DNA of 63,522 nt, filler included, from Platydemus manokwari (lineage: Eukaryota): NCBI GenBank assembly GCA_037951405.1. It is 6 parts of 6 records of this genome, joined end to end, with 100 filler letters (N's around TTAATTAATTAA, not from the genome) between each part and the next. Parts side by side here need not be neighbours in the genome. Positions count along the whole stretch, not along the records: positions 44,514 to 53,649 come from JBBMOY011294650.1; 5 more parts are not named here. One strand, given 5' to 3'. Shown in pieces: positions 1 through 49,300 of the stretch. The translations under genes and the position numbers were made by a program. How positions within the stretch are numbered: the stretch's first letter is position 1; each line of letters starts with the position of its first letter. The notes under the pieces are model-generated. The model was not told the origin of the DNA. It saw only the letters and a program-made list of their open reading frames with translations, and searched no databases.

Positions 1-1946
1 ACCATTTTTAAATGGAAATTTGGTTTTGAAAGGTTGAAATGACTTATACCACTTTCATAATCAAGGGCTCAATTCATACATTATTATCTAACCAATAGAA
101 TTGTAACGAGACGACTTATTTATTAAATGAAACCTTTAAACACCCCACCAGTACATGTTCCGCTATTTCAATCCAACAAAGTAAATCACAAAATATTTAC
201 ACATCATCACATAAAAAACTTAAATTTGAATACAAAATCCAATCAATTAAAACCAATAATAATAGTAACTACGGAGATTTTGGGAATAAAATATCACATT
301 TACGTTTGATAAGCATTTATACAGTAAGATGAAGTACAAAAAGTGAAATATTACTATAGAACATACATATTGAACATAACCAAAAAACAAATAAAACATC
401 AAGAAAAAATTAATTGTGATTAAAATTATAAATTGATTATCATAAAAATCGTGTTAATTTTCCATTATTACAAAAATGAAACAGATTGTAGAATAATCGA
501 ACCGAACAAAGATAAACCATAAATCCATCAATCCTATTTGGTTAGAGTTGAGAGAAAGCCCATAATTTACCGATCAAAATTTGAATGAATGACATTAGCG
601 GAATGATTCACAAACTAAACGGGTTACATTTATTCATCAAATATTATATTTCTTGAAATTTTCAAATCAGCGTAAAATTTAATTTAATAAACAGATTAAT
701 TTGTGAAAATTATCTCTCATTTCCCGTAGCAACCGGTCGAGTTCCGATACTAAAATTGCTATTGGGGAATAAATTAACACAATCGATTAACATAATTTCA
801 AAATAAATAGCGGGAACTAGCGAACAATGTATAATATTTCATAGAACAGACTTTATTTCTAGTGTAAAATGTTTTATTTATTTAATTATTGTAATATATT
901 TGTCACGAAATTAAGTGTTAGCGAAAATATGCTTGTCATTCAACTTGTTGCTAATGTCAAATGGAATTTTTAAAATATAAACCTGTCGACTACAGATGCC
1001 ATGTTACACAAAGAAAAATATGTTGTGTAAACTTTTATTCCAGTGAAAATTCATAAAATGTTAAAAATTATTGCAAAACTGTATTGCAAAAAAGTATTGC
1101 AAAACTGAATTATGTAAAGATATTTTTTAAAATAAAAAACCAAAAAGATCATAATCGATCACAAACATATAATAGAGTGTATTAATAATCTTAATTCTAA
1201 TCATATACGTTAAATGCATAAAAGTGAAATTTTAAAATGATATTAAAGAAAAGAATCCAGACATGCAGGATTACTTAATGATCACGTCGATAATGACAAT
1301 ACCATTAAATCACTTAAAACATAAAGGCGTGCAAAGTCATTCTTCGACCGAGAAGTATCGACTAGTGAGAGCGATATAATTAGTTAGAGGAAGAAAATCC
1401 TATGGAAAATGATTTCAAGACCAAAAATTCGAAATATCCTTGGAATATAAAACATAAGTACAATATTTTTACAAATACCTTATATAAAAAGTTTGAATAT
1501 TTGGTTTGGATTTGTAGATTTTATCGATTAATCAGAATATATTTCAGTTAACGAAATAGTCTAGACATACCAGGAAAACGTTTTGATGAATATTTGAAAA
1601 TTCTAGCAATATCTATAAAATAAACCCACATTTCTGAATAATGTATGATTTTTACCTATCATATTCCATCAAACAACTTGTTATTAAGACAATAGAAGAA
1701 TTAATAATAAAAAGGACAAACGATAATAAGATTATTTAATAATATACTCGTCTGTTGAGCTTAATAAATATCGAATATGTGATGTTTAAATGGATTTAGG
1801 CCGAAAATGAGTATTAAAACCAATGGGAATTTTTTCTCCGAATAAAACGATAACTGGTAGAAATTATAAGAAGGATTTAAGTCAAAAAGTTAAGCATAAA
1901 TTATACATTAAATCGAGTTAGATGTCAAAAACTAGCTAATAGATCT

Positions 1947-4900
1947 CTATTGAATCAAATTCAAGCATTTTGGCTTGGAATAATCATTAATGAATTGAAG
2001 TGGATGAATATTTTCAGTTAATTTGTTGAATTTTAAAACAGGATCCTTTTGGATTTGAAAAATCAATAAAAAGAGAATCCATGTTATTCTGAATTTTTTC
2101 CCATTTTTAGGGAAGAGTTGAATTGCAATGAAAATACTCAATTTATCATTTCAAGCTGCGCACGTGGATATAAACAAGCTAAATTTAATAAAAACACCAT
2201 ACATAAACAACCTAGTTATAAATATTATAAATCTCAGTGCTTATTAGATGTGTAGTTGAGTGATTAAATAATTTATGTGTCACTGTCCCCTAACTTGTGG
2301 CCCACTCTGTATATATTTTCAGTCAAATATAATAAAAATTCTTAATATTATTGATTACAACGTAGGTAAACAAAAAGATGTAAAACTAAAAAAATTGATG
2401 TTTCTCAAGAAAATCCCTTGTCATTCAACTGCTAAGTCATGGACTATAAATTATTTCCACAAAATCAACAAGTTGAGTCATGAGATCAATTGAGAAATTA
2501 AACCACAAAACAATTTTAATCCGAAAATCTTTTCGTTGAACTATAACAAATTAAGTAACGAGAAATTTTAGAAAAATAAGAGTTTTAGGATAAAATTAGC
2601 TTCATAATAAAAAACAAACTAAAAAATGACAGATATTAAATACAAAAATTAAATAAAAATTGTTTATTGCAGTTTCTGTATCTTCAATGGCCAATGAAAA
2701 TAAGCCATTACCTTTTGTTGATGTAGCGTTATTCTAAAATGTGATATTGACGTGAAATATTTGAGTACAACGGTTCCGAAAACGCGTAGCAAAAACATTT
2801 GTTTTCAATATTAATATCAATTTATAATGCTAATCATCATAAAGCCAACTGAAAAGATTTTCAAAAATAATGCGCATCTTTTAATAGATAGCTAAAAGAA
2901 CAAATTTCATTTCTAGGTACGAGACAAATTTTTTGACTTAAGGCAAGGGTAACTGTGCAAATGGTTAGGAAATGTAAACAACAGCATATAGAATTATGTA
3001 GCTTAAAAGAAAGTAATATGAAATTGCTCAATTTCAAACTTCAGTGTGCAAGTGACAAATTTAGTTGATCCAAGTAACTTATTTTATAATTGATTTATCC
3101 CTCGATTTTCAAAACAAATTAATTGTCACAAAAATTATATGATCAGATTACATGTCAAATATCAGTAATCATATCAACATGTACAGCTCAGAAAATTTCA
3201 ACTTACATTTTGATTGCAGCCATTGTACCGATTAATAGAATTGTTCATTGTATGATTTATATATTTTCGTGTTAGTGCTTGGTCATTTGTTAGCATATTT
3301 TGAGCAGTTAGACCAGAATTCAGAGTAGCTTTGTTAATTTGCATGAGAGAAGAGTCTGACTGAAATTTATAACCGGGAATCACTGTTTCTGGCTTGTTAT
3401 CCAATTGTGACAATATTGTATTGAAACCCGAATCTGGACCAATAACAATTGTCGCATTAGGTTTATTGAGTTTATTATTTTGTGAAAGACATAATCCCTG
3501 GAATGTGGAAATCTATTTTCAATAATGAGTAATTATAGACCACTCGATTAACAAGTTATCACTAACATTAGCATTTACACTAGAACCCCTTGGTAATTTA
3601 ATATTGCCGTGCCATGAATTTCTTTGGTTACATAAAATTGAGCTCGGAATTAGATCGAAATTATTGTCCTATATTATTCATTATAAGATTATTTTTAAGA
3701 TTATTATTATATTATAAGATTAATTTGTAAAAATTATGAAAGTAAGAAATAAAAGTAAAATACTAATAGTATTATAAATATATGATATTTCAATTACTAT
3801 TAGTAATAATAATATTGTAATAAATATGAACTTTTAAATCTTCAAAAACACAATTCAAATGTGAAATACAAGCAAATATAAACCATTATATGTTAAAAAT
3901 CCAAATAATAATATCAATATTAGTTTCTCTAAGCCTCTGAATCCTGAAAGAAATTTTCCTTTGTTTTCAAAGAATAATAAATAAAAATATGCAATAAACA
4001 ATATCAAAACCTTTATCATAAAATTAGAAAATGTTAAATTACAGAAACAGTGTAGTGTACCCTAATCAATATCCTGTCTCATATCTTCAATATCCTAATT
4101 AAATTTTCAATGAATCAATTTCAAAAATGTGGTGATTTGTCAATGCCAGTGTCGAAACAAAATTCCGTTGTATCAAGAATATAATAGATAATTTCCAAAT
4201 CATTGAATTCCTTTTTAGAATTCAATAATAGAAAAAGGTAAATTTCAATGCCTTCATAACCGCTATAAAGCATAATTATGCCAATTCTAATTGTTTCCCA
4301 AAGCTATATTTTTTTGTTCTAATTTTTTAACGGAAATTGATGGCCAATCAAGGAGAAAGATAATAATTGGTATAATTTTATCTTTAATGATTGAGTAATT
4401 TTGATATTGTTTAAAGTGGTTGAAAAGTATTGCAAGGTGTACATTGTTTTGTAACAATCACGATATCAAAATAAATATTACACCAATAAGCAGCTATTGG
4501 AATGTGGTGTATTTTTGAAATACATTCAACCCTCATTAATCCGAAAAATTAGAAATTGATTTCCTTTCGGATTGTGACTTGATTCGGATAATGAAGGAAT
4601 TTAAAATCTATATGATCGCCATATTAATAATGAAATTATTAAGGAAAAGACAAATATTTATTTAAAAAATCATCTAAAGTTTTTTGTAGAGTTTTCTTTT
4701 GAATGAATTTCTGTAAATCCACTTTGACTTTTTTTTAATTTTTTATTATATCATTGGTTATTTTTTGAGTAGATCTGTTTAAAGAAGAACTTGCTTTGAT
4801 GATAATTTGAATTGCATAGAATAAATTGCTCGAATCAAAATGTGACACAAACATGGCACAAAAATTACACAGATCCTGAGTATAAATATCGATGTAAAGA

Positions 4901-19252: not shown

Positions 19253-21199
19253 TGGATTTATGATTTGTTTTAATGAAATGAATTAATAAATTTTAAAATT
19301 GTTTTATGATCTATCAATTAAAACAAATAAATGATTTTTTGTTTAAATATTAAAAAAATTATTAGACATCATTATTGGAAATATTAAAAGAATTCCAAAA
19401 TAACAGCGCTACTCTCAAATATAATATCAATCCCATATATCTCTCATGTCAATCCATGAATGAAATCTGATTTTCATTTTCACTCCCAATTTGAATGATT
19501 TGAAAATTATGATTTTTTCTTGTCAATCTATACGAAATCGACTGCTTTTCTGCATCTTTTAGTTTTATCAATACATATATGATTACTCATGTCACTTTAT
19601 AATTTTGTTGGAGAAATAGGAATGACTGCACTTGTGAGGAAAATTTAAAAGAACAAATTTAATAATAATTTTAAAATATATAATACATTTTACATCTTAG
19701 TCATTTATTTAAAATTTAATATTATATATAATACGCTTAGTTAAGATTTGCTAATAAAATAAGCTCTCTGGAAAAATATTTTTATTTGATTTAAAAATGT
19801 TTAACTTGTTTTGAATAATAAAATTTACGAAAGTCTTCTGAAAGAATTCTTCTAATGAATCACAAATTTTAAGCGACGTAGGTATCAGTAACATTATTAT
19901 CGTTGACATATGAATACAATAATATAATTCATATTTAACAGAATGATTAAATAATGGTCAAGCAAAACGTTTTTAGGCTGCAGAAGTAATCTACAAGAAC
20001 CTACATATGCAGCATCGGAAAATGTATAATGAAGTAAACTAGAATCACTTTTTAAATATTGATGATAAAATAAAGAACATGGAAATCAATTTGATTGACA
20101 CTATATATCTCTGGGATCATTTGGATTTAGGGATGAGAGATCTAGATCGAGAATAATCCAACGAAACTAATTGAATATGCCAGATAATGTCAATAACGTG
20201 TTTATCTAGGTGATTGTTATTAGCTTTAAACATTTGTATTTTATCTATGTGTCGGATTTTGGGGCTCATCAATTTTATCCAACAAATGAGCTTGATTAAG
20301 GCTAATCTAATGTAAATTCAAATGTACCATCTCGATGTATCGGTATATTTAACAAATAAATCAAAAGACAAAGATTTTTATATAGAATAATCCACCATTG
20401 AAATCAAAACAAAGTGTACAATTATTCTAATATTTTACAAAAATTAAAAAATTAAATAAATTTAATTAATTATCGGACACACACATTTTATATTACAATT
20501 ATCCAAACGAAATATTTTAACTCCAATGATTTTATGGTTGAGAGTGAAAATTCCCGATATATATAGGAATATTTTAAATTTAGAGATTGAAAAATATATA
20601 TCAAACAATCAACGTTCGTTAATTCGAACTTTAGATATTTGTCTTCCTTTTTATAATACCAAGTACTACCAAAGATTCCATAATCGATTTTTATGGGTTC
20701 TTCTAAGCTTGTTACTCCTGCTACGCTATTGTCGGATAATCCAAGTCAGTTTCTTTTCTTAGAATTCCTGATTTCAGGTTTTCTCTTGACGAAGTTTTAT
20801 GTCGAGATTTTCATGAGCGAAAATTTCTAGTTTTTGCAATCTATTTATACTATTTTTGAAGTGGAAATTCTACTTAAGAAACTTAAAATATTTTTATTTT
20901 TCAAATTTGATTTAAAAATTAATTTTATTTTTTATTAAAATTCATTCGATGTATTTTATGAATTTGTTGGGTTTTGGAAAATAACTTTATTTTGTTTAGG
21001 AGATATGACTCCGTATTCATTTTTGTGTATGAACTTTTTATGGTTACCATGTAAATATTCTGTGTATATTCGTAGTAATTTTTATTATTAATAATACCTT
21101 TTTATCTTATTTATTTTTCTATCTGGAGAAATTTCTTAAATATTTATTATAATAAAATAAAACTAAAATTTAAATAACTTTGAAAAGTAAAAGTTATAA

Positions 21200-22317
21200 T
21201 TATAGAACCGATTATTGAAAATATAATTAAACCCGAAAATTAACCTATATTTTAAATCCCGTAATTAAAAAATACCTAAATATTCAAATTACCCCTATAA
21301 AATAAATAACCCTTATTTAAATTGGTTAGAAATTGGCTGGCAACTAAAATAAACATCAATATAAATAAATCCCTTTTGTTAAAAAAATAATAAACACCGT
21401 TTTCCACCCGCATATTAAAATGACAACCCGTATTAAATAAAAATTCATTCAAAATAAATTAAAAAGAACCCGCATTCTAACCAAAATTCAGTCCAAATAA
21501 AGACCCGTATAAATAGGCCTTTAAAATTAATAGTCTTGCCCGAAGCTGACAGAAACCAGCAGCATAGTGTGCCCGTCATTAAAAATCAACTATTCAAATT
21601 CTTTGCCAAAGAAAGCCAAAAGCCAATTTCCCTTGTATCAATCATATGCCCAGTTCATCCGGAAGATCAATTTAAATATTGATATTCGAACTGATTGATG
21701 GAATACCGAAGATTAAGGAGTTAACCGTAAGATACGATTCTTGTAAAATCATTATCAATTTAAATTTGAATCGCATATTCTTCCTATTTATTGGGTTAAT
21801 CCCAACCATCTTGAATAATCAGTTCTGCTCCTCTTGGGAGCATTGTTAACCAGAACTTTTGTCCAGAATTGTAAATCTCTGTCCGTTTCAGTGTATACAA
21901 GTATTGTTCATATTTAATCATAAATCGTTGTAAAAAAGTAGTAATTCATAGCCATAATTGTAATATAAAAGTAGTAATTTATATTGTAATTTATATTGCC
22001 CTACTTATCATTTCATTGTTCGTAAAGAATCATTGTATTGTCAATTCACCACCTTTTGAGAAGGGTGTAAGGAGGAAAATAATAGTAATAATAAATTGAG
22101 ACTGATCAATAAGAAAGCAATATCAGTGAGCCGTTCATCCGGTCTTCATATGATGATTGATATGATCAAGGCGAAGGAAGATCATACAAAAATAGGTTTA
22201 GTAGATACCTGGGGTTATAAGAACTCTGTGAGACTGATTAAACTTTGATATTGCCCAAAGAAAATTTAAATATCATAAATAAAAAAATTGAAAAGAGACT
22301 GACCCCAAAATCTTACA
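21200..22317 (+). mobile_element. Diverged solo/3' LTR remnant related to the 3' part of the giant LTR at 45100-46105 (left edge approximate)
   Basis: CGTATAAATAG TATA block (~21506, as at ~45278). AATAGGTTTAGTAGATACCTGGGGTTATAAGAACTCTGTGAGACTGATTAA matches the MITE-free 45778-46022 sequence. Three GAGACTGA boxes. Ends CCCAAAATCTTACA (compare CCCAAAACGCAAACA) with no PBS after it. Confidence 0.6.
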
Positions 22318-24270: not shown

Positions 24271-25302
24271 TATGAAAATAGCCACAAACAATCCCATCAA
24301 TATAATGATTATCGTAAAATTCGATTCTCATTACGATTAAGAAATAAAATATTGAAATGTAAAAGTGAATCTTTTAGTAACGTTGAAGCTAATAAATCTG
24401 ACTTTCATTATGATAATGTTAAATTACAAAAGGAATTTTCTAAAAAATTGATTGGTAAAAATGATTTTAAGCGTAAATCAATCAAATGGAAGCAGAAAAA
24501 GAAAACTGCACAATTAATAGGCAACGGTAAGAAAAATATTCTATGCAAAATTTGCCATATCGTTTTACATTCAACGAAATCTTATGAAATTCATAAATGT
24601 CGGCATTTCAAAAAGCTCATATTCCAATGTAAAGATTGCCAGAAAACATTTAAAAATAATTTCTCTCTCATTACTCATATCAAATCATATCATCTCAAGA
24701 TTTCTCCTAAACGACAACAATGTCAGATTTGTGGTAAATTAGTATTGAACCTAGATATTCACATACGACACCATAACAATAAACGATTCCGTTGCGAAAT
24801 ATGTGACAAACGATTCATTACGAATACGTATTATTTGGAACATTTATCAATTCATAACAATATACGCTGTTTCCAATGCCAAATTTGCCAAACAAATTTT
24901 AATCGAAAATGGAATTATCAAATCCATTTGGAAAATCACGAGAGAAGAAAAGATAAAAATGGAAAATATTTACCGTTAAAACCTCGAGGAAAAGGCCATG
25001 TGAAATATAAAGAAAATAAGATTTTATCCACAAGAGAAAATTTAGTGGAAAAGTGGAAAATTGTGGAAAAAAATTCAAGAAGCTCTGATACATCGAATCT
25101 AGGAAGTGGAATTATTTTAGAAGATGAAATATTGATGACGATTCATGGCTGTTTATGGGAAAATCGTGATGAGATGAAAGATAATTCAAATATGCTCGAT
25201 TCAGATAATGAAACATGGTCAAATGTTTTATTGAGTTCAAGAAGTTGCGATACATCTGATTTGGAATATTTTTGCCATTTTATGCTTCAGTTTAATTGTT
25301 GA
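24271..25302 (+). CDS. C2H2 zinc-finger protein, terminal exon (five fingers)
   Basis: Fingers CKIC..HKCRH, CKDC..HIKSYH, CQIC..HIRHH, CEIC..HLSIH and CQIC..HLENH. The frame is open back to a TTTTAG acceptor at 24270. Upstream exon(s) not located. Confidence 0.9.
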   Translation, partial: YENSHKQSHQYNDYRKIRFSLRLRNKILKCKSESFSNVEANKSDFHYDNVKLQKEFSKKLIGKNDFKRKSIKWKQKKKTAQLIGNGKKNILCKICHIVLHSTKSYEIHKCRHFKKLIFQCKDCQKTFKNNFSLITHIKSYHLKISPKRQQCQICGKLVLNLDIHIRHHNNKRFRCEICDKRFITNTYYLEHLSIHNNIRCFQCQICQTNFNRKWNYQIHLENHERRKDKNGKYLPLKPRGKGHVKYKENKILSTRENLVEKWKIVEKNSRSSDTSNLGSGIILEDEILMTIHGCLWENRDEMKDNSNMLDSDNETWSNVLLSSRSCDTSDLEYFCHFMLQFNC

Positions 25303-35194: not shown

Positions 35195-35679
35195 CGACGT
35201 TCAGATAAGTGCTTTGTCTAAAATCAGTATAAATACCGATACCAAATTCAGTAGAATCGCCTTACAGCGCTACAGTTAATCAATCACACGAATAATCTGA
35301 AGCGATTTGCAACGCAAAATTTATCATGAGTAATTCATTCTTGTTAATTAACCATTCCATAGTTATATCTGCAATCCATTCACGAACTTGTCAGTTACTA
35401 TAACTCTTCTCTGTCGAAACTCTTATCGGGTCTGAGTCTGTGTCCGGGCTATTAGGCGGCACCGACAATACCCATCATCTTTAGGGATAGGTATCGAACC
35501 TGCTCTTCTGGAAACTCTTGTAAATTACTATTTTCAACAAGTTATTCAGCTCGTATATCTGTTATATATCTCAATAAACATTATTATATACGTTGTGTTT
35601 TTGTTTTATTCTGTAATTGTCATAAGTGGTATATAAGTGCTAGTAGAAGTGCTAGTATCCGCAATCCTTTGGAGTCAGA

Positions 35680-36746
35680 TTGCTTAAAACCTCTCAATCC
35701 TCGAGATACAAAATCTCCACAAGTAGTGTAAATTAATTGTGATATAGTAGGACTGCTACCATTAACAAGGAACGGAAATAAATTCATATTAGTCTTTTGT
35801 GGCTATATTACTAAATGGCCTGAATCATATCCAATACCAGATCACACAGCGAATACAATAGCGAATACAATATGTAGAAGAAATTATATTCCAATTCGGA
35901 ATACCGAAAAAGGTACTTACGGATAGATAAACGGAATTTATGAGTAAAACCCTTACAGAAATTAATAATTATTTACAAATTACGAAACCAAACACATCAC
36001 CATACCACCCGCAAACAGATGGTTTAATAGAACGGTTTAATGGAACTTTATTAAATATGATATCATCATACGTAAATACAGCACAAAACGACTGGGATGT
36101 ACATATACCATCATGCCTTTTTGCATACCGAATTGCAGTACATGAAACTACAGGGTATACACCCTTTTAGCTTATGTATCTTCGAGACAGTAATTTGCCA
36201 GTCGATATAATAATAGAACCAAAAATATCACAATACATAAACATCGAGGATTACGCGGTATTAATGAAAGAAAGACTCTCGGAAGCATGGCAAAGAGCAA
36301 ATCTCAATATTAAATATTGACAAGAACAATTAAAAGAATAATATGATAAAAATCGAAAAAACCATTCAATTCAAGTAGGAGACAAAGTTATGATAGAGAA
36401 TCGAATATGTAAAAAGGGGATATCACCACAATTAATACCACCATATAAGGGACTATATATAGTAGAAAAAGTGACGGATACCAACTTATTAGTAAGATCA
36501 AGAGGAAAAAATAATGCTGATCCAATATGGGTTCACGCACAGCAATGTAAAAGATATGATGAATATGAAAATGAAACGCTAAACAAAGCAACACAGATAA
36601 GATCAATAGAAACAGAAGAAAATGAAATCATACCATCAACAAGTAAACAAGGATCAACCAGTCATAGATTTCCACTCAGATCACACCTTGATGATGATTA
36701 CCTTATTGAATATGTTAACAATAGCAAATTGTCCCATTTATACTAA
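35680..36746 (+). pseudogene. Ty3/Gypsy integrase (rve core plus GPY/F-type C-terminal domain), disrupted
   Basis: CDIVGLLPLTRNGNKFILVF...TKWPESYPIPDHTANTIA; FGIPKKVLTDR; TSPYHPQTDGLIERFNGTLLNMI; WDVHIPSCLFAYRIAVHETTGYTPF; QVGDKVMI...LIPPYKGLYIV...VHAQQCKRY. Frameshift and stops present. Confidence 0.95.
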
Positions 36747-36894
36747 ACCACCTATCATTAGACATAATTGGAGTTTAATTTGGGCAGAATTCTGGATAGT
36801 AATTCACGTACCTGAAAAGTTACCTTTTATAATAAAGTAAGACTATATACTTACAAAAGTAAACTTATTGATTCAGCAATAGTAACTAAGGAGC

Positions 36895-37538
36895 ATGTAT
36901 TCGAAAGTCATCACTGTAAAAATGGAACTTTGGTGCTATATTAAAAATAACGATATATTAATAGACAAAGACATCGTCGAGATTCAATTGAAATCACGTT
37001 TCACAGGAATAACAGTAGAGTCCGACAGACAATACATCTCAATTATAAAACCCGAAAGTAGATATTATATAATAAGAGCCAGGGTAATAGGAGAAAATAC
37101 GAAGGAAGCTAAACACTACATGATGTTAGAACATAAACCTAAGACAATGCATCTACTCCGGGACCCATGTGAAGAACCCATACGAGACACATCACTTGAA
37201 ATACAAAAAGAACTAGACACGAAATAAAACCAGCAGAAAACTGTGATTGTCAAAACACTACAAGAAAAGGAATAACGAAAAGTAGAAATACTTCACCTAC
37301 TAAAACAACAATAACTAAAAAACTAAAACCAATAATGGGAAAGATATCACCACAATTATGGTCACACATTAAGCAATCTAACAAAAATAACATAGACCAA
37401 ACTCAACTAATACCACATTATAACCAGAGGATCCGAAACGAACAAAATAATGAAATAATACTATTATATTCTACGCTATCAATAGAAAAACTGGAAATGA
37501 TAAATAGAGCGGAAGTAATGATTGAGCTGCCTCGATGA
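36895..37538 (+). pseudogene. Accessory ORF0 remnant of the retroelement, unknown function
   Basis: ORF pieces 36895-37227 and 37335-37538 with the same A-rich coding bias as the integrase. Beta-strand-like pattern VEIQLKSRFTGITVESDRQYISII. Confidence 0.5.
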
Positions 37539-37791
37539 TACTAATGGCTATAACCACACTATTTATGGTAATGGTAATCGGTAAATGTAAATAAAAGAGG
37601 GATTGTACAGACAGTAGGACCTACTTTTACAATAATAGGTCATATAAAATGACAACGTTATGGCAATCATAGTCAGAGAATATATCACCAATGATACAAC
37701 TATAAATCATATTAATATTTATCATATCATTTTTTATAACACAGCATCAACATAACTTGAACACAATTTAACTCTTTTCATGCAGATTAAA

Positions 37792-39265
37792 ATGAGAAGA
37801 AACGAGGTTTCAAGCTATCTATCTACCTACACTAGTAAAGCAACTTCCTATACCTACTCTACCGAAGCACCAGTTGGCTTACAATATCACGAGTATATGG
37901 CAATAAAAGCAAGAAAAGGTACTAGATATGTGTCCTTCGTAAAATCAATTACAACTGCCAAACAAACTCAAATATAGCGGACGAGTTAGTAGACACATTC
38001 AAGCTGCTCTACTAACCTATACAAATGTACAAATATTGATACAGCTAATGCCAGCTCTACAAAATCAAAAACACTACAACACCTTAATCCTAACAACTAC
38101 CAATGGGCCACTCACGGTCTACATCGCTGGAGTAGGAGAACCAATCTATCTCTCACCGCACACCAGCTTAGAACTTGGAAATTATGACGAAAGGATCGAA
38201 CGAATAACCCTTCTAAGTCAGGATGTACCAACAGCAGTGGTACTAGTAATGATCAAGAAGGAACAAGAACCTAAAGCGTATCCAATAACTAGAGGATTTG
38301 AAGAAATCCCTCTCAAAACACTCGATGCATATGAATCACACCAGAAGAAGAGCAACTCAATACATTATACATAGCGGCATTCTATGTGGATACCTTGGAA
38401 ATAATCACGGAAAAAATTCCAATAACCACTATTTGCTCCATCTCAATTCCGATCAAACGGAGCAACTATTAATCAATTCATTAATTACTCCTCGAAATTA
38501 CGTCAGACACTACAGAAAATATGACCACAAATTGGATGAAGAAAAACTAATAAATCAATCGGACCAAGCAGAGGCATATGAAAAAATCAAGGAAATAATT
38601 GATCAAAAAGTCTTTATAGGCTTTCAATTCGCGGACATAATAAAAGCCCTAGCGTTCCCTACATACTGTATTATGGGAATTAAGGATCTGTCAACAGAAG
38701 AACTGCTAACAAGATACAAGGTGTATGATAAAACACCATATAAACTTAAAAGAGTAGAACAACAAATACTGACAAACCTATTGAAGAAAATCCATGAATT
38801 AGAAACCAACAACCGAGTGGAACAAATAAAGGAAATCCATGACCTTATAAAACTCAGTGGAGACCAGCAGTCAACACTACTCCACTAATATCGGATTATG
38901 AATCAATCGACTTGGATACTGGAGAAATAGAAACCGAAATAGAAGAAGGAAATTCAGAACAAATGTCAAAAAAGGGCAAGTATGGGCCAAGCCTAACCTC
39001 TGGAATACCAACTGAACCCTTAAGTACAGATATCAATACTGATATCCCACAGCTAAGAGGAGAAAGGGTGCCTTATTTGCCACCAACAATTCTCCAAACA
39101 TTAATCGTAGATAATAAGGGATGGTACATTACGGCCATCCTCTATACGTGTGAAGACGACCTGGATGAGTTATGTCTCGACTTTAGTAATGAGGGCTTGG
39201 AACAAGCAAGATCCGGACAACAAGCCTTCGGACGAAAAGCAGTGAAACAAAGAGTCAGAGAATAA
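37792..39265 (+). pseudogene. Accessory ORF-A: beta-rich domain + DEDDh/REX4-like exonuclease fold + acidic linker + WxITAIxYT motif
   Basis: Frameshifted pieces read YIAAFYVDTLEI...TICSISI / LLINSLITPRNYVRHYR...LDEEKLINQSDQAEAYEKIKEIIDQKVFIGFQFADIIKALAFPTYCIMGIKDLS. This follows the REX4/ISG20 pattern (V.P...V.DYR....I....L.......V...V..ll..kilVGH....D..aL.......I.DT). Confidence 0.7.
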
Positions 39266-39593
39266 TGATAATGAGTAACGACAATGTAAATTAATTAACT
39301 TTTGTGATTATTTTTATGACAACTTTGTGTGATCATTCTTATAATTTATGTCTTCATTCTTATTACTTATGTCTTAGTGTTGTAATTTAAATCAAAAAAC
39401 TTATTACGCCTTAAGGATGTTGAAATTAAAGCAAATAACCAGAGCATAACAAAAATAAAGCCTAAAATATATAAAAACCAATCATAATAAATTAAAAAGT
39501 CTATTAACGTAATATATAACATACATTATATTGAATACATTATACAATATGTTATCAACCTTAAATGTTTAATCTTTATTTTCAGAAAATGAA

Positions 39594-41097
39594 ATGATTC
39601 AACGTCATCCACAACTCATTGGGACACACCCAACCAAATATTTCACAATTCCAAAGTTATACTGTAGATACGGTTATAACAATAATTTCAATGCGTAAAT
39701 GGAACAAAAAACCTGCCACAGCCAAACCTTTAAGGACCAAACACATCTTCCTAACAATATGAAATTCCCAAATAGAGGCCACAGAGCCCTAGAGACTATA
39801 TTTATCAATAATAGAAGAACTACTTCTCTAACACAATTATTTAACGATATCAATTATGCCACCGGAGTAGACGTAGTGTGCATACACACCACGGTAGTTC
39901 AAATATCAATCGTTATTCCTGGTCTTGAGGAAGTGATCTTCCTCCGAAGACATCATGCATTAGACATCACACAATGATGAAAGATTACTGAAAGGAGGAG
40001 TTTCCTTCTCAGTCCTGCCAGTAAATCTAATCCTGGAATCTAGTCGCTACGACATTGCACCGATGAAAAGTACAGTCACCTTCATACTAACTTAACCTAC
40101 CTGGGTATCAGAGAAGATATTCTTAATAGGCATTCCTTCATTCGAAAGAATCTGCCTCAAGATAAAATAAGAAGTAATATAAGAATCCTGGCCACTCAAA
40201 TAATGGAAACCATCAAAATCACAAGCAGTAAAGATACTGACAAGACAGTATGCGCTGTCACCGTTTTAACCTAAGAAGGATTAGTTGTACTCAATACAAT
40301 GGTTAAGCCTCGACACTATATCAGACACTGGAGAAATCAGGGAACGGATCAATTAACAGAAAAGTACATCATAGATGCTTGGAATGAATAAGCACTCGAG
40401 AGATACATTATATCCGTTCTGGACAAAAGAATTGTGATAGGGCTCAACGTAAACGAGTAATTGGAAGCTCTAAATTACTCTACTCACAGGCTTCTTGGCA
40501 TAAGAGACATAAGCAAATTCAAATACTGAGTCAAGTGGATGAGCCTTCAAAGGAATCCAGCGGATAACAAAATTAAAGGAAAAACTCATCCCAGATCATC
40601 GAGTTAATATGAAAAGAATAATCAGCTACCAAAAAGCGTACGATATACTAGAAATATGTCGCATAATGGAATATGGATGGCAAAATCATCCCATACTTCC
40701 TCGAGAAGAAACCAATGTAAATGAGCAGCTGGAAATAGAAAACGACAATAACCCAAAAGCAGCACCAGATCTAACAAAACAATTCAAGCCAAGCTACAAA
40801 GTCTTCGAAATAATTCCAGAGGAAGATGAACCAGAGGACTCAGAAGGGGAATACGTCTCATCAACAGAAGACGAAGAAGATGGAGAAAATGAAGACTACC
40901 CGATGACCGAACCAAGAGAGGAAACAAATCTCCCGCAGTTACCAACAATAATACCGCCAATGGTATTACTTAGCAGGGAACGATGGTTAATTACAGCCAT
41001 CCAGTACACTTAACCAGAAACGTGGGAACAATTTCTGCAAAGCTATACCAACCCCAAGCTGAGAAAATATGAAAACTATTTAATATCCTTCGTGTAA
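39594..41097 (+). pseudogene. Accessory ORF-B, full-length paralogue of ORF-A
   Basis: RILATQIMETI...TVCAVTVLT*EGLVVLNTMVKPRHYIRHWR...SVLDKRIVIGLNVNE*LEALNYSTHRLLGIRDIS, then an acidic tract, then LPQLPTIIPPMVLLSRERWLITAIQYT (ORF-A: VPYLPPTILQTLIVDNKGWYITAILYT). In-frame stops and frameshifts. Confidence 0.75.
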
Positions 41098-41483
41098 TCA
41101 TAAACTATAAACTTGAACTTCATTATTACTGTGAGATATTTGAGATGAATTAAATTTCAATTTAATTCAAAACTATTTTAATTTACAATTATTCAAATTT
41201 TATTCAGATTTAATTTAATTTTATAAAAAATTAAGTTAATATAAAATTGAAAATATTTGTTTAAATATTTGGATTTAAAATAGAATTGATTGTGTCTTGA
41301 CATTTTTGGTTTGATTTTAGTTTGTGGTTTCTAAAATAGTATGAGCAGCTAACAATTACTATAAAATTGATGTCATTAGAACGTGTCTCATCTTGAATCT
41401 TGTATAAATGTGTATCTTTCATGCCTGAAAAATGGCACTGAAAAAGTTTTATGTAAAACAAATACCAGGACAATTAATTATTT

Positions 41484-41514
41484 CTCGGGACGAGAGAACT
41501 TTAAGAGTGGCATA
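41484..41514 (+). other. Polypurine-tract / pre-LTR motif
   Basis: CTCGGGACGAGAGAACTTTAAGAGTGGCATA directly before TGT matches the usual Ty3/Gypsy TCGGGACGA...TTAAG-purine-TGT junction. Confidence 0.7.
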
Positions 41515-41700
41515 TGTTTGAAATAAACAGTAGTAATCAAATAATAGTAAATAGTAAATAATAATCATAAACAAATAATTAATTAAGCACCAGAATTTTT
41601 CATCCAGAATCTTCAGAATTTCCTAAAATAACCCTAAAAATAAATAAATAACAAAAACAATGAGAGATCATCTCAAAAACAATGGAGAAAAATCAATTAT

Positions 41701-41820
41701 CCAATAGGAATAATACCCTTAAAATCGCAACCAATAAGTAAATAACCAATATTCTGACACCCAATCAAAATCGAGCTCTTAAAACATAAAAGTGGCCCTA
41801 AACTCATTAAGTCTCATTAT
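41701..41820 (+). promoter_or_regulatory. CCAAT-box promoter for the LTR-embedded ORF
   Basis: CCAAT at 41701, 41731, 41746 and 41761; CATAAAAG at 41785; TCATT initiator-like sites downstream. Confidence 0.55.
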
Positions 41821-41901
41821 TTTACTGGAAGAATTCTACTCGTAGACAATCAAGTAGTTATTGTTCATTTTTCAATGTTGTTAATTTTATATTCCCAAGA
41901 G

Positions 41902-43620
41902 ATGGAACCCTCGACGACAATAATACAGTTTTTTCCGCGCCGATTCTATCTTGGTATAGAATCAGAAAAAAGAAAGACCCCATTCGGAATTGAAAGAAGG
42001 ATTTTTGAAAAAATAAATGAGCTACCCGACAAGTTAAAGTCAGCTTCACAACAACTACGAACAACCGTAGTCATACATTCCCAAGAACAAGCCAGTTTTC
42101 AGTTGGGAGATATAACGCAGAATCTAATCTTCAATCCGAGCATGATTAAAATTCACTGCTCCCAATCTGATATTGCAATCAAATGTGTGAATGAGCTGAT
42201 TGAGTTGGAGACATTCTCATCAGCATCCATCCATCTTATCCCACTAAGAAATCAACATGCAGAGTTTCAAAAAATGACAATCAGAGCCAAGGAAATACCC
42301 TACACGATCATGGTAGAATATACAAGGCCAGAGCCGGAGGAGTTAGGAGAGTTCGGAGAATCAAAGCCATTCACAATCAATAGTCCGAGTCAATTGCCAT
42401 TCAGTGAGCCTAAAAATAGGATGTCATTCAAGAGAAAACCTGACGGTGTAAATCGTTATGAGGAGAGATTTTTATTGAATTTCCTTGATGTCAAATACGC
42501 AGTCAATTACAATTAAAAGGAATATCCGACCTGGATTAGCATAAGAGATCAGATGAGGAGAATAATTTTAGAACAGACTTGCTTTTCGAGGAGAGAAATA
42601 AAGCATTACTGCGTCAACAAGAACGGATTTGGAGAATATGTAGTCAGAGGAGCAACAGATTCTGAAGAGTTAAGCAAACAAGCAATCGAATTATTGAGGG
42701 GGAAGATCATTGTTGATATGATCTTAAGAAAGAGATGAAAGCACTGTCAATCTTGACTGAGGAAATAATGGGCGCAAGAGACATCAAAGGAGTCAGAATA
42801 ATAAAGAAAATCATGAAGGAGAAAAATGCTTTCCAGAGTGAAAAATTGAAAGATATTTATGCGGCAATTACCAACAAAATAATGGCACAATACGGAGAAA
42901 TGACAGATGAGATTCAGGCAACCATCAGCATTTATAACGAAGCCATCGATCATTGGATAGATGACATAGAAGATTGTGAAGATCAAAGATACCAAGAAAA
43001 AGTGGAAGCAGAAGGAGAAAAGATGCTGTCAATATATTCGAATGGGCTGAAAAAAACTATTCAACAAAAGGAACCATAATTCGAACCAAAGAGAAAATCT
43101 AGAAATTAAAATCCGCGGAAGAAATTTATCTCAGCATGAGAAAAGACAAATTTTGGCAAAAGCGTATGGGGGAGTACAGAGAACTCAGAGAAAATCAGAA
43201 GTCTGAGAAGGTACAGATAATTAACCATGATATTTTTTCAATTTATGTTGATGAAAACAACGTCAATGAGGAGTCATGACCATGCAGCAGGAGTACTATC
43301 TGACCGATGAGGACCAAATATTTTTAGAGCAGCTCTGGGTAGATGCCAAGGCTGAAGATCAACTGCTGATGAATGAGGAGCGAGATTTTGAGCGACTCCA
43401 GAAAGATTTAGAGGAATTCATCGAACAAGAGAAAAACAAAAAGATTGTTGAGAATTCTAATTTGTATCCTGATGCTGAGGAATTCCTACCAGGGCGGCCA
43501 TGGGAAGTCGTCAACGTAAAATCAATGAAAAAGTAACTCAAAAGGAAGCTGAAGGAACCATCAGAGCCAGATGCAAAGCATCAAAAGCATGAGGACATGC
43601 TTTCTGAGACCCCCCAGTAG
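41902..43620 (+). pseudogene. Accessory ORF-C inside the LTR: beta-rich domain paralogous to ORF-A/B, helical/coiled-coil region, PAM2-like motif
   Basis: ORF pieces 41902-42516, 42517-42738 (same frame after one TAA), 42735-43079 and 43276-43620. SNLYPDAEEFLPG at 43456-43494. Could be two genes rather than one. Confidence 0.7.
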
Positions 43621-44127
43621 TGTTGGGGATTTGAGAAAACAGCTCTATCCAATGTATTAATTCAATATCAATACAATGTAACAATCCAACATAACAATTG
43701 TGACTCGAACATCAAACATTAATTATGCATGGCCTAGCTGTATGGGCATTTGTTATTTTGTCATTTTCCATAAATGTAAATGTATCAATGTTGTAACAAT
43801 TTTAGGGCTTGATTATTCAAGCAGTTATTATTGTACCAATTTTTATGAATAGCTTGATTAATCAAGCAATGCATATTTTATTGTTACCTTTTTATTGTTG
43901 GGATCCCCACTCATCACAAAAATACAGAATACACTCATCACAAACTCACAAATTATAACTCATATACCCTTTACATAGCACACACACCCAATAGGAAATC
44001 CATTACATAATGCATGTACATAACAAATAAGCCTTTAGCTATGGAAGCAGATATCCAAAAGCAGACCCATCATTTATTCCAATCCAAAGTCAATCCAAAT
44101 TCAAAATGTCAACAACATATTATCCCA

Positions 44128-44290
44128 ATATTCAATTATCGACTCATGACTGCTTATCCAATTTTATTATTGCTTGTCATAACAATTTATTATAACAATC
44201 TATGACTGCTTTTTCAATTTTATTATTGCTTGACAATGTATTATGTCCAATTTTATTATTGTTTGTTATGATAATTTATTATATCTTCAT
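44128..44290 (+). repeat. Short degenerate tandem repeat (CAATTTTATTATTGCTTG core, three copies)
   Basis: Core visible three times between 44140 and 44270. Confidence 0.7.
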
Positions 44291-45791
44291 AATGTATTAT
44301 TTATTATTGTGAGGGTTATGTATGAATAAAGGAATGAAGGGAGAATGCGGGTGATGAGGGATAACGACAATGAATATAAAATAGGATGATAAAAGAAAAT
44401 ATTAAGTTATAAANNNNNNNNNNNNNNNNNNNNNNNNNNNNNNNNNNNNNNNNNNNNTTAATTAATTAANNNNNNNNNNNNNNNNNNNNNNNNNNNNNNN
44501 NNNNNNNNNNNNNCAAAACCATCGACAGAAATCAAAGATAAGTACATGGAACAAATAAGTACTGATGTAGTGCATTTAATAACTCGATAATCTCATCAAC
44601 AATAACCTAGAAATAGACAGATCCTATTATTACATTTTTCACACAAGTAAAAAAACTACTATTTATTGATCTGTTGGGGATTCGAGAAAATAATGTATCA
44701 ATTCAAGTCATTCTGCACATCTATTATCGTCTCAATCGATTGATTCGGAAAAAAAACATTCTAATTGGAAATTTCTGAGAAACATTGTGAATTAATTATT
44801 TATAACATTAAACATTTATTTTAGCTTGTCTGTACAAGCATTCAATTTATAATTATATGGATTTTTATTTTTGGTTTAGTTGTATAAAGTGTCCATTTTT
44901 GTTTGGCTTGATTAAGCAAGCATTTGTAAATGTAACAATTTTATTTTGGTCTTGATAATTCAAGCATATCAACTTGTAATATTTTTTATCTTTTAATTAA
45001 AAGTTTTGTTTGTTGATTAAGCTTCTGGATAAATTAATTGAAAAGAAATAATAATAACTATAATAATAAACACGCTAATAATAATAGTCATTATAGATAA
45101 ATGATGAAACCTTGAAGATTTTTGTGAGACATAAATTTAATATGTTATATTATTTATATAGGCAATCTTTAGGAGAATTTTTTATTTTTAAGAATAAATG
45201 GTAAATCTCTTGAGAATTAAGATAAATGCATCCATTTTCTTCATTTAATCGTGACGAATAAAGCCGTCTTCCAAATCGTATAAATAGTGGGTTGAAAACC
45301 TCATAATTTCGCCCTTATTTGAAACCACTAGCTTGTAGTGCGTACGTATCCTATCCATATTTGCCAGAAGCATTCTTGTCAATCAATTGTTCAATTGTAT
45401 ATGCCAATAAACGTGAGTTCGATAATTATTTAACAAACTGACCGTTACTATAAACTTCGTGAATATCTTCTATTATAGAGTTGTGTCTCACATCCTTGAA
45501 GGTGGTTTTGCTAAAAGAGCGTGCAGTTTATTAATCCTGTACTTGTCGTATAAATTGTTCATTTTTATCAAACCATTTTATTATTACTGTAGTAATTTAT
45601 AATCGGTGTCAATTGTATATGTTGTGTCAATATACGTTTCATAAAACCCAAAATTGTTGATTGTTGATTAAATTGAGACTGATTAAGTTGAGACTGATTG
45701 CTTCAAAATCATTAGATCATTGTTCCCGTTTGGTATTGTCACAATATAATATTGAACACGAGGTGAAAATATAATTAATAAGGGTTCAATA

Positions 45792-45978
45792 CAGTCAAAC
45801 CTGTTTTTGTGCGGTCATTTTTTATGTGCTTTTTTGTGCCTCTACCGCATAAAAAAATTTCTTTACTATGCTGTGAAAAAGTATTTCTTATAGCTATTTA
45901 TGAAGTTTTTGAATATTTTTTTTGTGTGCTGTTTTTTTTCTGAAGTCCCTATCTACCGCACAAAAACAAGTTTCACTG
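45792..45978. mobile_element. 187-bp Tc1/mariner-superfamily (pogo/Tigger-type) MITE inserted in the LTR
   Basis: TIRs CAGTCAAACCTGTTTTTGTGCGGT and ACCGCACAAAAACAAGTTTCACTG (22 of 24 matching), flanked by TA on both sides. Absent from the related LTR at 22.2 kb. Confidence 0.9.
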
Positions 45979-46107
45979 TAGTTCGTACCTAGGGCTTGAT
46001 CAGAACCACGAGAGACTGATTAATTCAACATTGATCTACAAAGAGTTAAAATGTCAGACTGATAAGAATAATAAAACAAAAACCAGCAAGCCCAAAACGC
46101 AAACAAC

Positions 46108-46652
46108 TGGTGCCCCGAGTGATGATGAAATTGTTATAAAAATTTGAAAACCCGAGTGAGGATAAAATTGGTTTGAACTTTGATAAAAGTTTGAAAGCAA
46201 ATAGTTAAGTAAAGTTTAAGGTCCCGAATGAGGATATAATTGTTTTTAAAAATTGTAAGATTTTCTAAGGTTAATAAATATACATCAACTGGTGACCGTA
46301 GTGATGAGAAATTTGGTTTAAAACTTGATAAAAGTTCGGAAGCCTAAATAGTTAGAAGACAAAGTCGTTTTCAAATTTGAGGAATAAATTGGTTAAAAAT
46401 TTTGAAGACGTGAATAATTAGTAAAAATTGAAGACCCAGGTGAGGACAAAATAATAGTAATGCACAACAAGTGGTATCTAGGTGAGGTCAAATTTACTGT
46501 AAAATAAAAGCGAGGAACAAATTGTTTATAAGACAACAACTGATGCTAAAAAGTGAAATTAAACATCAACTGGTAAACCCGAGTTATAGTTTCAAAGATA
46601 CATCAACTGGTGCAATAGTAAGAATTGAAATAAATGTTAACTAGTGCCCGAA
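46108..46652 (+). repeat. Primer-binding site (elongator tRNA-Met type) followed by ~9 degenerate copies
   Basis: TGGTGCCCCGAGTGATGAT at 46108. Further copies at 46151, 46221, 46290, 46433, 46472, 46541, 46571, 46608 and 46642. Consensus TGGTGCCCCGAGTGAGGAT. Confidence 0.75.
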
Positions 46653-46760
46653 TAGCAAATTTTTAAATTGATATAATTGCGAGTTTAAAAATTGAGAGGT
46701 TAAAGTTAAAGATTGGTAAAATTGTGAAATTGGAAAAATAGTTAGAATATGAATAAAGTT

Positions 46761-46910
46761 GATAAAATTGAATTAAGCCATGGAGCTATTGATAAGTTTA
46801 ATCTGAGCCAAGGAGTTATTGATAAATTTGAATTGAGCCATGGAGCTATTGATAAGTTTAATTTGAGCCAAGGAGCTATTGATAAATTTGAATTAAGCCG
46901 AGGAGCTATT
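46761..46910 (+). repeat. 30-bp minisatellite, five copies, alternating A/B units, inside ORF 46749-47006
   Basis: GATAAATTTGAATTGAGCCATGGAGCTATT alternates with GATAAGTTTAATTTGAGCCAAGGAGCTATT. Translates DKIELSHGAI DKFNLSQGVI DKFELSHGAI DKFNLSQGAI DKFELSRGAI. Confidence 0.9.
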
Positions 46911-47699
46911 ATTTATAAATTTAAATTGAAATTCAGTCAGAGAGCTTTTGATAAATTTGATAATCAAAGCCCGTTAGATAATTTATTGCGTGAACTGGAG
47001 AGATAGTTTAATGACGCATAATAAGTAACTTTGATATATAAAAAGAAGAAAAACAGATTAAGGTTTTCAAATTTATAGCAACAAAGTTAACAATTTGAGA
47101 GGTCTACACCCTGCTCTAAGTTTTATTATTTAGTAAAGAGATTGATAACTTAATAGGTCTAGTTTCATAATAAGCATTGATCGTTCCACGAAAAGTGTTG
47201 AGTTTTTTTTGCACATATCAAATTGATTCTTAAGATCTACGATGCGGGGCTGATTTTTGCTTTTGTTTCGGGTCACCAAACCTGGCCGTAGTTTAGTTGT
47301 AGATTCTAGTTTCTTTAAAAATATGATAAATAAATAAAATGTTCATAATATTAAAATTATAAAATTTTTAGTTAAAAGATACTTTTTAAAAAATTATATT
47401 AAAAACAAATATACCACATTAATATTTATAAAAGTACTTTCTTAAAAAATACTGTTATATTCTCACTTTTAAAATTAGTAAAATTATTTAAATTAATAAA
47501 AGTAAAATTTAAATATTTAAAAAAATAAGATGTAATAAAAAATATGGGCATTTTTATTGAAATTAAAAATGAAAACAAATCAAATGGAACTAAATTTTAA
47601 ATTTAATATTTAAATCTTGTTTTAAAATCAATGTATTGAAAAATAGATTTTTGTTCTGTTGTAAACAAGACTTTTGATTTGAATATTAAAAACGAAGAA

Positions 47700-49300
47700 G
47701 TTTTGGCAACTAACAGTATTCATGTCCGTGTCGAAGCCTATTGTATTTTTTTAACCCCAGCAAAGTGTGGACTTGTTGGCCTGAATGGAATACGGAGTGA
47801 AATTGAGTAGCATCAGGTTGTTGAGCGATTGATGTGCAAAGATCTACAGCTACAGTGACATGTTGAAGTTTTTCAAAGGCTTCTGCGATAGATGTGAAGC
47901 TGAAAAATAGTTAACCAACTTTCGCTGTTTTTTCATTGTAGACCAAAGATTGCAGAAGGGCTTGAGAAAAAATATATCTCCTCTAGCAATATGATTATTT
48001 TATCTGCACAGGTCAGAGCTGAGAATTCACTTTTATGGAGTGTAATCTTAAGAAGATCTGGTGAGAAAGTCGATTGAAAGACAGAATAGTGCCATTAATA
48101 AATGACATCTTCACCTGACACCTCGGTAAATTAGTATTAGAGATATTTTTAATTGGCCACAATAGTAGTTTGATTTAAAGTCCTCGCATAAGGCTTTGAC
48201 CAGTTGGATATAGTGAGAGTTACAGCCCATTTTGTCGAGAGTTTGATAAACGACATCATGAGAATGCTTTTGAAAGTCTATCCAGCAGATGTGTAAGTCT
48301 TTGTAATGTTGAGGTGCATATTCTGAAAGTGTAAATAAATAGGCATAAATGTCAGAGGCCTTCATTGCATTCTGATTCGGAGAGAGAAAATTTCTAGCCT
48401 CGATCCAGTTGACAAGTCGGTGATCGAGGATAGTTGCAAAGATTCAGTATTATGGCTCCTTGAAATATTTGCCAGTATGAGGATACAATGTAAGAGGTTG
48501 GCTGTTTCACGAGAAGGTTGGTTTTGCATTCTGTCCATTGATTCGGTATTGTCTTTCTTTGAAGGGTTTTGGTTAATAAAGCTAGTAGAAAAAATGTTTG
48601 GGATCGATAATCTTCCAGTCCATGTATTTGATGTCGTTTGAAGGTGTTGCAGATCTCCGATGTTGTGATTTCTCTGGGCTTGAATTAAGCCAAGACATAG
48701 TGTGGAGATAACTCTGATGGAAATGGAGAGGGAGTCGAAGTTATGCATTGCACTATGATTTGAAACAATATTGGTAGAGATACTGGTTGTGAGTAGGGAT
48801 AAATATTTCTGATTATATTCTTGAGCTCAGTGAGACATTAGCTCCAAAATTTGAAATTTGAGGATGAATTATTATTTAAGAGGAGTACTAATGGTTTGAC
48901 AAGTTTCTTTGCTGGAGATCTCAAGAGATCGCCGATAGATAACGCTGTTTTGTTAGTAGACTGTATTCGTTTGAATTCCGGAGAGTCGACCTCGAGCAAT
49001 TTGATGATTTCAAGCAGAAAGAGTGTGTTGCTTGACCAGTGCTTGGATGGCTGACTTAATGTCTTTCGGAGGAGTATTATGTTTGCTATAGTCCGACTGA
49101 TGTAAGATTAGGATATTGTCCAGCTTGTGTTGTAGGGGTTCCTGTGGTTTCCATTCCAATGAAAAGTCATAAGACGATTTTACAATATTACAGTTTTTGG
49201 AATGGGAATTAGAGTTAGAAGTCCTTGAAATCCCGATTGTTGGTGGCGACTGCATACCGCAGATTGATTATTGGATTCGGACAGTTTTGCAAGGGGATGA
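47700..49300 (-). mobile_element. Decayed non-LTR retrotransposon reverse transcriptase (R2/NeSL-like early clades likely); edges approximate
   Basis: IPNQWTECKTNLLVK; LHICWIDFQKHSHDVVYQTLDKMG..HYIQLVKALCED...ILIYRGVR* (RT 'DF.KAFDSV.H' and 'RGVRQG' regions); SALTCADK (YADD remnant). Many frameshifts. Confidence 0.8.

Follow-up and report, generated by a model that had tools for sequence, protein, structure and literature searches.

The window analysed here, a 63,522-nucleotide stretch of Platydemus manokwari DNA, is AT-rich (~26% GC) and interrupted by gaps. In and around the LTR retrotransposon that is our subject, it contains the following features:

44672 to 46105 (+): 5' LTR (TGTTGGGG ... 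CA), start predicted
45277 to 45287 (+): TATA-like box CGTATAAATAG, also present unchanged within the diverged LTR, at 21506; putative promoter element
45790 to 45980 (no strand given): MITE within the LTR, with 26-nt inverted arms (92%) and TA at both ends
46749 to 47006 (+): first ORF start, 85 aa to a stop and decayed beyond; presumed gag
20965 to 22317 (+): diverged LTR from the same lineage; aligned blocks agree in ~57-64% of columns; start tentative
35618 to 43896 (+): neighbouring decayed element, with a Ty3/Gypsy integrase at 35618-36632, ORF remnants to ~43600 and a related LTR start at 43621

An LTR retrotransposon remnant and its relatives

The start of the 5' LTR at 44672 is homologous to the related LTR start at 43621 (score 43, null maximum 35), and a second block of homology joins 43650-43896 to 44733-44998 (score 90, null maximum 52). 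At its other end, the LTR aligns with the terminal stretch of the diverged LTR, 22206-22310 (score 53, null maximum 38), and cover by sequencing contigs, described below, sets in within the bin 44628-44740, near the LTR start. We found no identical partner LTR in the window; the ends of this TG...CA repeat are predicted from its two diverged relatives and from contig cover. Other copies lack the MITE, with contig joints running from 45741, 45749 or 45769 to 45979 or 45985. The diverged LTR also ends in CA, with no primer-binding site (PBS) behind it. We considered and rejected the idea that 43896-44814 is an insertion, with a 5-bp target duplication, that splits a single LTR, since a second LTR start was found at 44672. 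No polypurine tract was seen before the LTR starts at 43621, 44672 and 20965 (43606-43620, 44651-44671 and 20946-20964, respectively); a C-run precedes the LTR start at 43621, which is expected to belong to a 3' LTR.

The element that carries the array described below is truncated near 47200, and no pol lies within its extent. Its first ORF, starting at 46749, contains five 30-bp (10-aa) repeats at 46759-46910. We found no usable relatives of this 85-aa ORF start or of a 252-aa ORF at 41758, and the 252-aa piece has no Pfam or Atlas match. The integrase at 35618-36632 matches RT-RH-IN polyproteins at 62-70% and is tied to the LTR start at 43621 by adjacency only; by association with this integrase-bearing relative, the array element is provisionally assigned to the Gypsy type. 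On the plus strand, ~7 kb of decayed ORF remnants (36600-43600) separate the integrase from the LTR start, which suggests that the element was giant and had accessory genes behind pol. The Burro elements of planarians, giant Gypsy elements of >30 kb, encode a giant polyprotein with BIR, MATH, BCL2 and env-like domains. As described in the available portion of a review (PMC6431247), they resemble the elements here in their flatworm host, long internal regions, accessory ORFs and tandem repeats; they differ in that a Pfam search of 17 ORF pieces from the window found no BIR, MATH, BCL2 or env-like domain, and that portion of the review is silent on the PBS.

Further features lie around these elements. 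A third stretch starting with TGTTGGG (43896-44413) interrupts the LTR at 43621 and runs into a gap, with no second copy in the window. Repeats of the type GCTTGATTAA..CAAGC at 43800-45020, in the U3 part of the two related LTRs, are possible enhancer motifs. Just before the integrase remnant (35600-35660), a CA is followed by TGGTAT, possibly the end of another short LTR; this TGGTAT matches none of the tRNAs examined. Decayed minus-strand frames at 47600-49300, which by eye we take to resemble a LINE reverse transcriptase, have no Pfam match. A PLOD lysyl hydroxylase exon at 50810-51136 (gene 50700-53000, minus strand) has flatworm proteins as its best matches, and a host C2H2 zinc-finger ORF lies at 24271-25299 on the plus strand.

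The primer-binding site and its degenerate repeats

The region behind the LTR is made up of the following units:

46108 to 46126 (+): unit 1, the PBS, 18/19 complementary to elongator tRNA-Met; first 15 nt from the tRNA 3' end perfect
46145 to 46289 (+): units 2 and 3 (46145, 46217), partial PBS from the C-run, no TGG head, long tails
46290 to 46428 (+): unit 4 (mock LTR end followed by TGGTG, 14/19), then two weak units (46366, 46403)
46429 to 46540 (+): units at 46429 (headless, -19.4 kcal/mol), 46472 (TGGT head, -17.2 kcal/mol) and 46499 (background level)
46541 to 46660 (+): short distal units at 46541, 46571, 46608 and 46642, 30-37 nt apart behind CAAC- or TAAC-type ends; good pairing only at 46571 (-16.8 kcal/mol)

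Unit 1, TGGTGCCCCGAGTGATGAT, starts 2 nt past the CA at 46104-46105, exactly where a reading of the sequence alone (the sequence-only reading) had placed the first PBS copy. A PBS is expected 0-5 nt from the 5' LTR and complementary to a tRNA 3' end; here the spacer is 2 nt, which is also the median given for Drosophila LTR elements in the text available from PMC2790888, and 18 of 19 positions are complementary. A search with the consensus 19-mer, allowing up to three mismatches, found a single match in the window, at 46108 (one mismatch), and none of 100 shuffles yielded any.

The same reading had named elongator tRNA-Met as the source of this complementarity, and two sets of tRNAs bear it out. 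A metagenome scan with an exact 16-mer (consensus positions 4-19) found at least 120 loci; 24 of those among the matches listed continue as a tRNA. Nineteen of these 24 are called by ARAGORN as tRNA-Met(CAT) and start with G1, and so are of the elongator type, initiator tRNAs being recognised by the A1-U72 rule; the rest are two damaged Met-like copies and three intron-bearing Ile/Thr genes. In Schmidtea mediterranea, the 3' end of MET-CAT_tRNA_5 is the exact complement of the consensus, and within the planarian tRNA table this end occurs only there and in two Met-like derivatives (PMC7962491, supplement file 2). Mammalian tRNA-Met-CAT-1 deviates by one position, as given in an excerpt of PMC13338051. 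The combined matches support elongator tRNA-Met as the predicted primer. We rejected the intron-bearing tRNA-Ile(UAU)/Thr, whose 3' end is shared by three of the 24 tRNA-like loci listed, because only Met and Met-like tRNAs carry this end in the planarian table and because the LTR boxes described below fit the Met anticodon arm. These three tRNA-Ile(UAU)/Thr(UGU) genes (L051, L076 and L097) have their last 16 bases in common with eukaryotic elongator tRNA-Met. Scans of viral and prokaryotic sequences (2, 0 and 13 viral loci; 7 genome loci) found no related element, the matches being chance or phage/bacterial tRNA-like ends; in viral contigs L124 and L135, a CCA-encoding tRNA-like end matches at least the first 15 bases of the PBS.

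We delimited 13 units from 46108 to 46660 by eye from motif scans and scored each by its duplex energy with the 18-nt tRNA 3' end, for which the 1% level of the background is -13.9 kcal/mol. Unit 1 scores -33.4 kcal/mol. The units at 46145, 46217 and 46429, all without the TGG that pairs with the CCA of the tRNA, score -25.6, -23.2 and -19.4 kcal/mol; those at 46290, 46472 and 46571, which retain TGGT and have internal mismatches, score -18.7, -17.2 and -16.8 kcal/mol. The six weak units (46366, 46403 and 46499, at -9.0, -5.2 and -9.1 kcal/mol; 46541, 46608 and 46642, at -10.0, -12.0 and -12.8 kcal/mol) are individually inseparable from background, as 1.7-46% of 9894 background sites pair equally well. 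Unit 1 aside, six sites reach -16 kcal/mol or lower, as compared with at most two in any of 200 shuffles and at most two in any of 214 other window segments. We conclude that the array of PBS-like repeats is real.

A functional PBS would be expected to start with TGG and to pair over at least 10 nt. None of the 12 extra units does so, the TGG-bearing ones mismatching by position 5-7, and among the 13 units only unit 1 combines a full 3'-end match with a position at the LTR end. Hence, where an array of about ten PBSs had been proposed, the repeats stand but only unit 1 is a near-complete PBS; judged from its sequence, 46108 is most likely the sole working PBS of the array. Mock LTR ends of the CAAC/CAAG type lie ahead of five units (46290, 46472, 46541, 46571 and 46608), and AAATT(G)GTT-type tails lie behind six (46108, 46145, 46217, 46290, 46366 and 46499), much as had been described earlier. 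The segment 46295-46408 duplicates 46150-46260 (72%). The farther a unit lies from unit 1, the weaker its pairing tends to be, a trend that is not significant (Spearman 0.54, p = 0.055, n = 13), and no special RNA fold of the leader is supported (z = 0.83).

Other copies of the element were sampled through one sequencing run, X1, which is possibly the source of the window and which supplied 2788 contig records on 44515-47900 at 80% likeness; their depth is not copy number. Cover is 412-4082 across most of the transcribed LTR, 693 at unit 1 and at least 3000 at the ORF start, and along the array after unit 1 it is 204, 83, 37 and 62, with 37-83 at the distal units. Joints at 46122>46300 and 46122>46309 lead from unit 1 straight into the tail of unit 4, at 46173>46286 and 46323>46153, contigs leave out part of unit 2 together with unit 3, or repeat units, and in some contigs an extra PBS-like unit follows a CAAC end. 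Of the 416 variants recorded, 40 were listed, and none of these falls within the array. The array is not private to this locus, and its units are differently arranged between contigs; it is the most variable part of 44515-47900 across the X1 contigs. The highest X1 cover in the stretch, 77571, falls on the 30-bp repeat at 46759-46910, maybe an abundant coding repeat or an element-derived satellite.

Among the matches listed from the metagenome scan, one locus of 31% GC, L113, has a perfect 19-nt PBS after CA and one base, followed by two decayed repeats that start at the C-run of the PBS (~nt 7), as does unit 2 in the window, and that have different tails. Because the likeness between L113 and the window is limited to the junction (83% over 47 nt), common descent and convergence of the two arrays cannot be told apart from their sequences.

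We compared the PBS-like part and the spacer of duplicated units. Between units 2 and 4 of the window, 12/19 positions of the PBS-like part and 38/47 of the spacer are identical; between units 1 and 3 of L113, the figures are 13/21 and 36/44. The pooled counts for these two pairs are 25/40 and 74/91 (Fisher p = 0.028, a generous value: chance matches come more easily to AT-rich spacers, and an AT bias may speed the decay of GC-rich sites). Units 3 and 5, outside the pool, differ in the same direction (11/21 versus 19/26). CpG decay does not account for the faster divergence of the PBS-like part (CpG observed/expected 0.93). The expectation that tRNA-complementary positions would be better kept than spacers was thus reversed in both duplicated pairs compared, and we regard this as modest evidence that unit divergence runs opposite to what a selected array would predict.

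Anticodon-arm boxes in the LTR

A second class of putative tRNA contacts lies within the LTR itself:

45674 to 45697 (+): two TGAGACTGA boxes (45674, 45689), complementary to tRNA-Met(e) positions 27-35, within a 15-bp tandem repeat
46012 to 46062 (+): third and fourth boxes (GAGACTGA at 46012, AGACTGA at 46056); the third aligns with 22229 in the diverged LTR

Exact tRNA-complement matches of at least 7 bases in 44820-47300 fall in the array, at 47054, and in the (T)GAGACTGA boxes at 45674, 45689, 46012 and 46056, which are complementary to anticodon-arm positions 27-35 of tRNA-Met(e). GAGACTGA occurs six times in the window, on the plus strand every time and three times per LTR (at 22098, 22230 and 22295 in the diverged LTR), and is the most repeated 8-mer common to the two window LTRs. 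TGAGACTG is the sole 8-mer present in all three LTR segments, the third being the 295 bases ahead of the L113 PBS, such that complementarity to positions 27-35 is conserved in two window LTRs and, in a single copy, in L113, which may share its descent with them. Dinucleotide-shuffled tRNA bodies match equally well in 373/20000 cases (three copies in each LTR) and 210/20000 cases (all three segments), and mononucleotide shuffles in 10/20000 and 19/20000, respectively; we take the p value as ~0.01-0.02, for a motif that was noticed before testing. The box matches none of 14 non-Met tRNAs and 8 of 17 distinct tRNA-Met variants, and a planarian tRNA-Met gene carries the box-matching stem. Positions 27-28 of the tRNA-Met(e) anticodon stem differ between eukaryotes. 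The box also overlaps a TGATT(A) motif, and a transcription-factor or other protein site is possible.

The sequence of the LTR boxes together with that of the PBS suggests multipartite primer binding. Likened to the extra sites of HIV-1, Ty1/Ty3 and Drosophila gypsy, the LTR boxes are more likely than the array units to be accessory tRNA contacts. An AATAAA lies 35-40 nt ahead of both LTR ends (46070 and 22278); if it is the polyadenylation signal, R would be long and the anticodon boxes would lie at both ends of the RNA.

Several known systems bear on this comparison, each seen here through excerpts of the papers cited. In HIV-1 MAL, an upstream U5 loop makes an extended contact with the tRNA anticodon, much as the LTR boxes might (PMC3185550). 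In a Met-using HIV-1 construct, the Met PBS opens with TGGTGCCCCG, and TGAGACTG, which is natural in these LTRs, lies within the anticodon match that was built into U5 (PMC1084362). Drosophila gypsy has two sites for tRNA-Lys2, the second of which is directed, as here, against the anticodon stem of the primer (and its T stem); that second site is single, 11 nt long and near the 3' end, with no PBS array, and its binding is experimental, whereas ours is predicted from sequence (PMC1635307). The bipartite PBS of Ty1/Ty3 likewise provides multipartite tRNA binding, of the kind predicted here, but these elements use initiator tRNA-Met, their extra sites pair with the T and D arms, and an array is absent from the description available (PMC5371799).

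Origin and possible roles of the array

Among the functions that the sequence-only reading had put forward, a record of slippage fits best, a loading scaffold is kept alive by the LTR boxes, and a decoy for 3' tRNA fragments is unsupported. Our preferred account, to which we give somewhat less than even confidence, is that the element had one working PBS and that the array is the debris of out-of-register re-annealing at strand transfer. A flatworm Gypsy-type element, now truncated, would have primed at 46108 with elongator tRNA-Met, and its LTR end, PBS and first leader bases would have been duplicated repeatedly as nascent DNA re-annealed out of register. The slips may have taken place at strand transfer, the step at which the plus strand stops within or close to the PBS; a restart inside the PBS would give headless units, and a restart at the LTR end would give units with a mock CA end. 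The copies would later have decayed and turned over between subfamilies, and the (T)GAGACTGA boxes in the transcribed LTR could have opened the anticodon arm of the primer. Repeats start at the same PBS position (the C-run, ~nt 7) in window unit 2 and in L113. As far as the available text describes it, plus-strand synthesis of Ty1/Ty3 is repeated and dead-end strands accumulate; repeated priming gives strands that end in a copy of the tRNA, a possible source of junction duplication, and the tRNA does not serve to correct the PBS, so that a mismatch such as that of unit 1 could persist (PMC5371799). By analogy, dead-end plus strands are a plausible substrate for junction duplication and may have served as such here.

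The nearest parallels to the array come from HIV-1, again as described in excerpts. The MAL-type 23-nt insertion is, like the present units, a point-mutated partial duplication of the PBS directly downstream of it; HIV-1 MAL has one such short duplication, whereas the flatworm element has about twelve, some of which copy the LTR end, and multiple anticodon boxes (PMC3185550). HIV-1 variants with an altered PBS also have multiple PBSs, which arise during reversion; unlike the present element, these are laboratory constructs, they are transient and the tRNA is mammalian (PMC1084362).

Strand-transfer debris is not the only account of repeats in this position. Unrelated tandem repeats occur elsewhere in the element (units of 15 bp within the LTR and of 30 bp within the ORF), and given these, slippage at the DNA level would explain the array equally well. 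Direct repeats tend to be lost during reverse transcription, and for this reason the persistence of the array in several lineages could need selection.

A selected role as a tRNA-loading scaffold is possible, if unlikely. The leader units and LTR boxes would bind several molecules of tRNA-Met(e) and thereby concentrate the primer in the particle or bridge two genomes or the two ends of one. In keeping with this, six extra units pair at -17 to -26 kcal/mol, sites for the acceptor/T arm and for the anticodon side are both multiplied in the same RNA region, L113 is laid out in the same way, other host copies hold PBS-like units of their own, and the second site of Drosophila gypsy (anticodon and T stems) lets the tRNA bridge RNA ends, according to the part of PMC1635307 available; the faster divergence of the PBS-like parts is the modest evidence to set against it.

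We think it unlikely that the array is a minisatellite of ~36 bp, generated by DNA replication slippage or unequal exchange, that was seeded by chance on the LTR-end/PBS junction with no involvement of reverse transcription. In favour of such a process, the units lie 30-43 nt apart or at twice that distance (72, 73), there is a 145-bp higher-order copy, and LTR and ORF hold further tandem repeats. However, L113 too has repeats that begin within the PBS, with tails that differ from those in the window, and the partial PBS duplication of HIV-1 arises in viral replication (PMC3185550, in the part available).

A broader form of the scaffold, which we consider rather unlikely, is a multivalent tRNA-capture leader maintained throughout a flatworm Gypsy lineage. 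Boxes and array would load multiple elongator tRNA-Met molecules per genome, the architecture being maintained while the sequence turns over, and would either secure the primer against translation or hold genome ends or dimers.

It is improbable that the units with CA, 2 nt and TGG (46290, 46472, 46571 and 46608) are spare priming junctions, which would prime if unit 1 were blocked or lost and leave a CA end usable by integrase. These four retain the CA-AC-TGG spacing of unit 1, the mismatch of unit 1 at position 16 is common to unit 4, and some contigs pass from unit 1 directly into the unit 4 tail; but their pairing is far weaker (-12 to -19 versus -33 kcal/mol), with mismatches from position 5 or 6, and the PBS-like units that downstream priming would leave inside an LTR end are absent from that of the diverged LTR. 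Least probable by far is a decoy role, in which the array would draw off 3' tRNA fragments before they could block the PBS. Five or six units retain TGAGGA, complementary to the 5' end of an 18-nt 3' fragment, unit 1 has a mismatch there, and 3' fragments that act on retrotransposon PBSs are cited in the available text of PMC7962491, but TGAGGA is lost from the extra units of L113, sites in cis would presumably draw silencing onto the same RNA, and the available part of a survey in S. mediterranea, another species, reports 5' halves, tRF-5s and internal fragments, although the 3' class may be under-sequenced.

There is precedent for partial duplication of the PBS, for HIV revertants with multiple PBSs and for second tRNA sites; in the literature searched, coverage of which is incomplete, we came across no description of a retrotransposon with a long PBS array. 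If the array is a by-product, as in the strand-transfer account that we prefer, it would be a fossil record of strand-transfer errors in a non-model retrotransposon, and a warning that mock CA-TGG junctions may lead PBS callers to put LTR ends in the wrong place. Were it instead a true multi-tRNA scaffold, the array would represent a new packaging principle. If the boxes bind the anticodon arm, evolution would have reached the very 8-mer with which HIV-1 U5 was engineered for more stable priming by tRNA-Met, and how elements secure an elongator tRNA would become a question directly testable with short RNAs.
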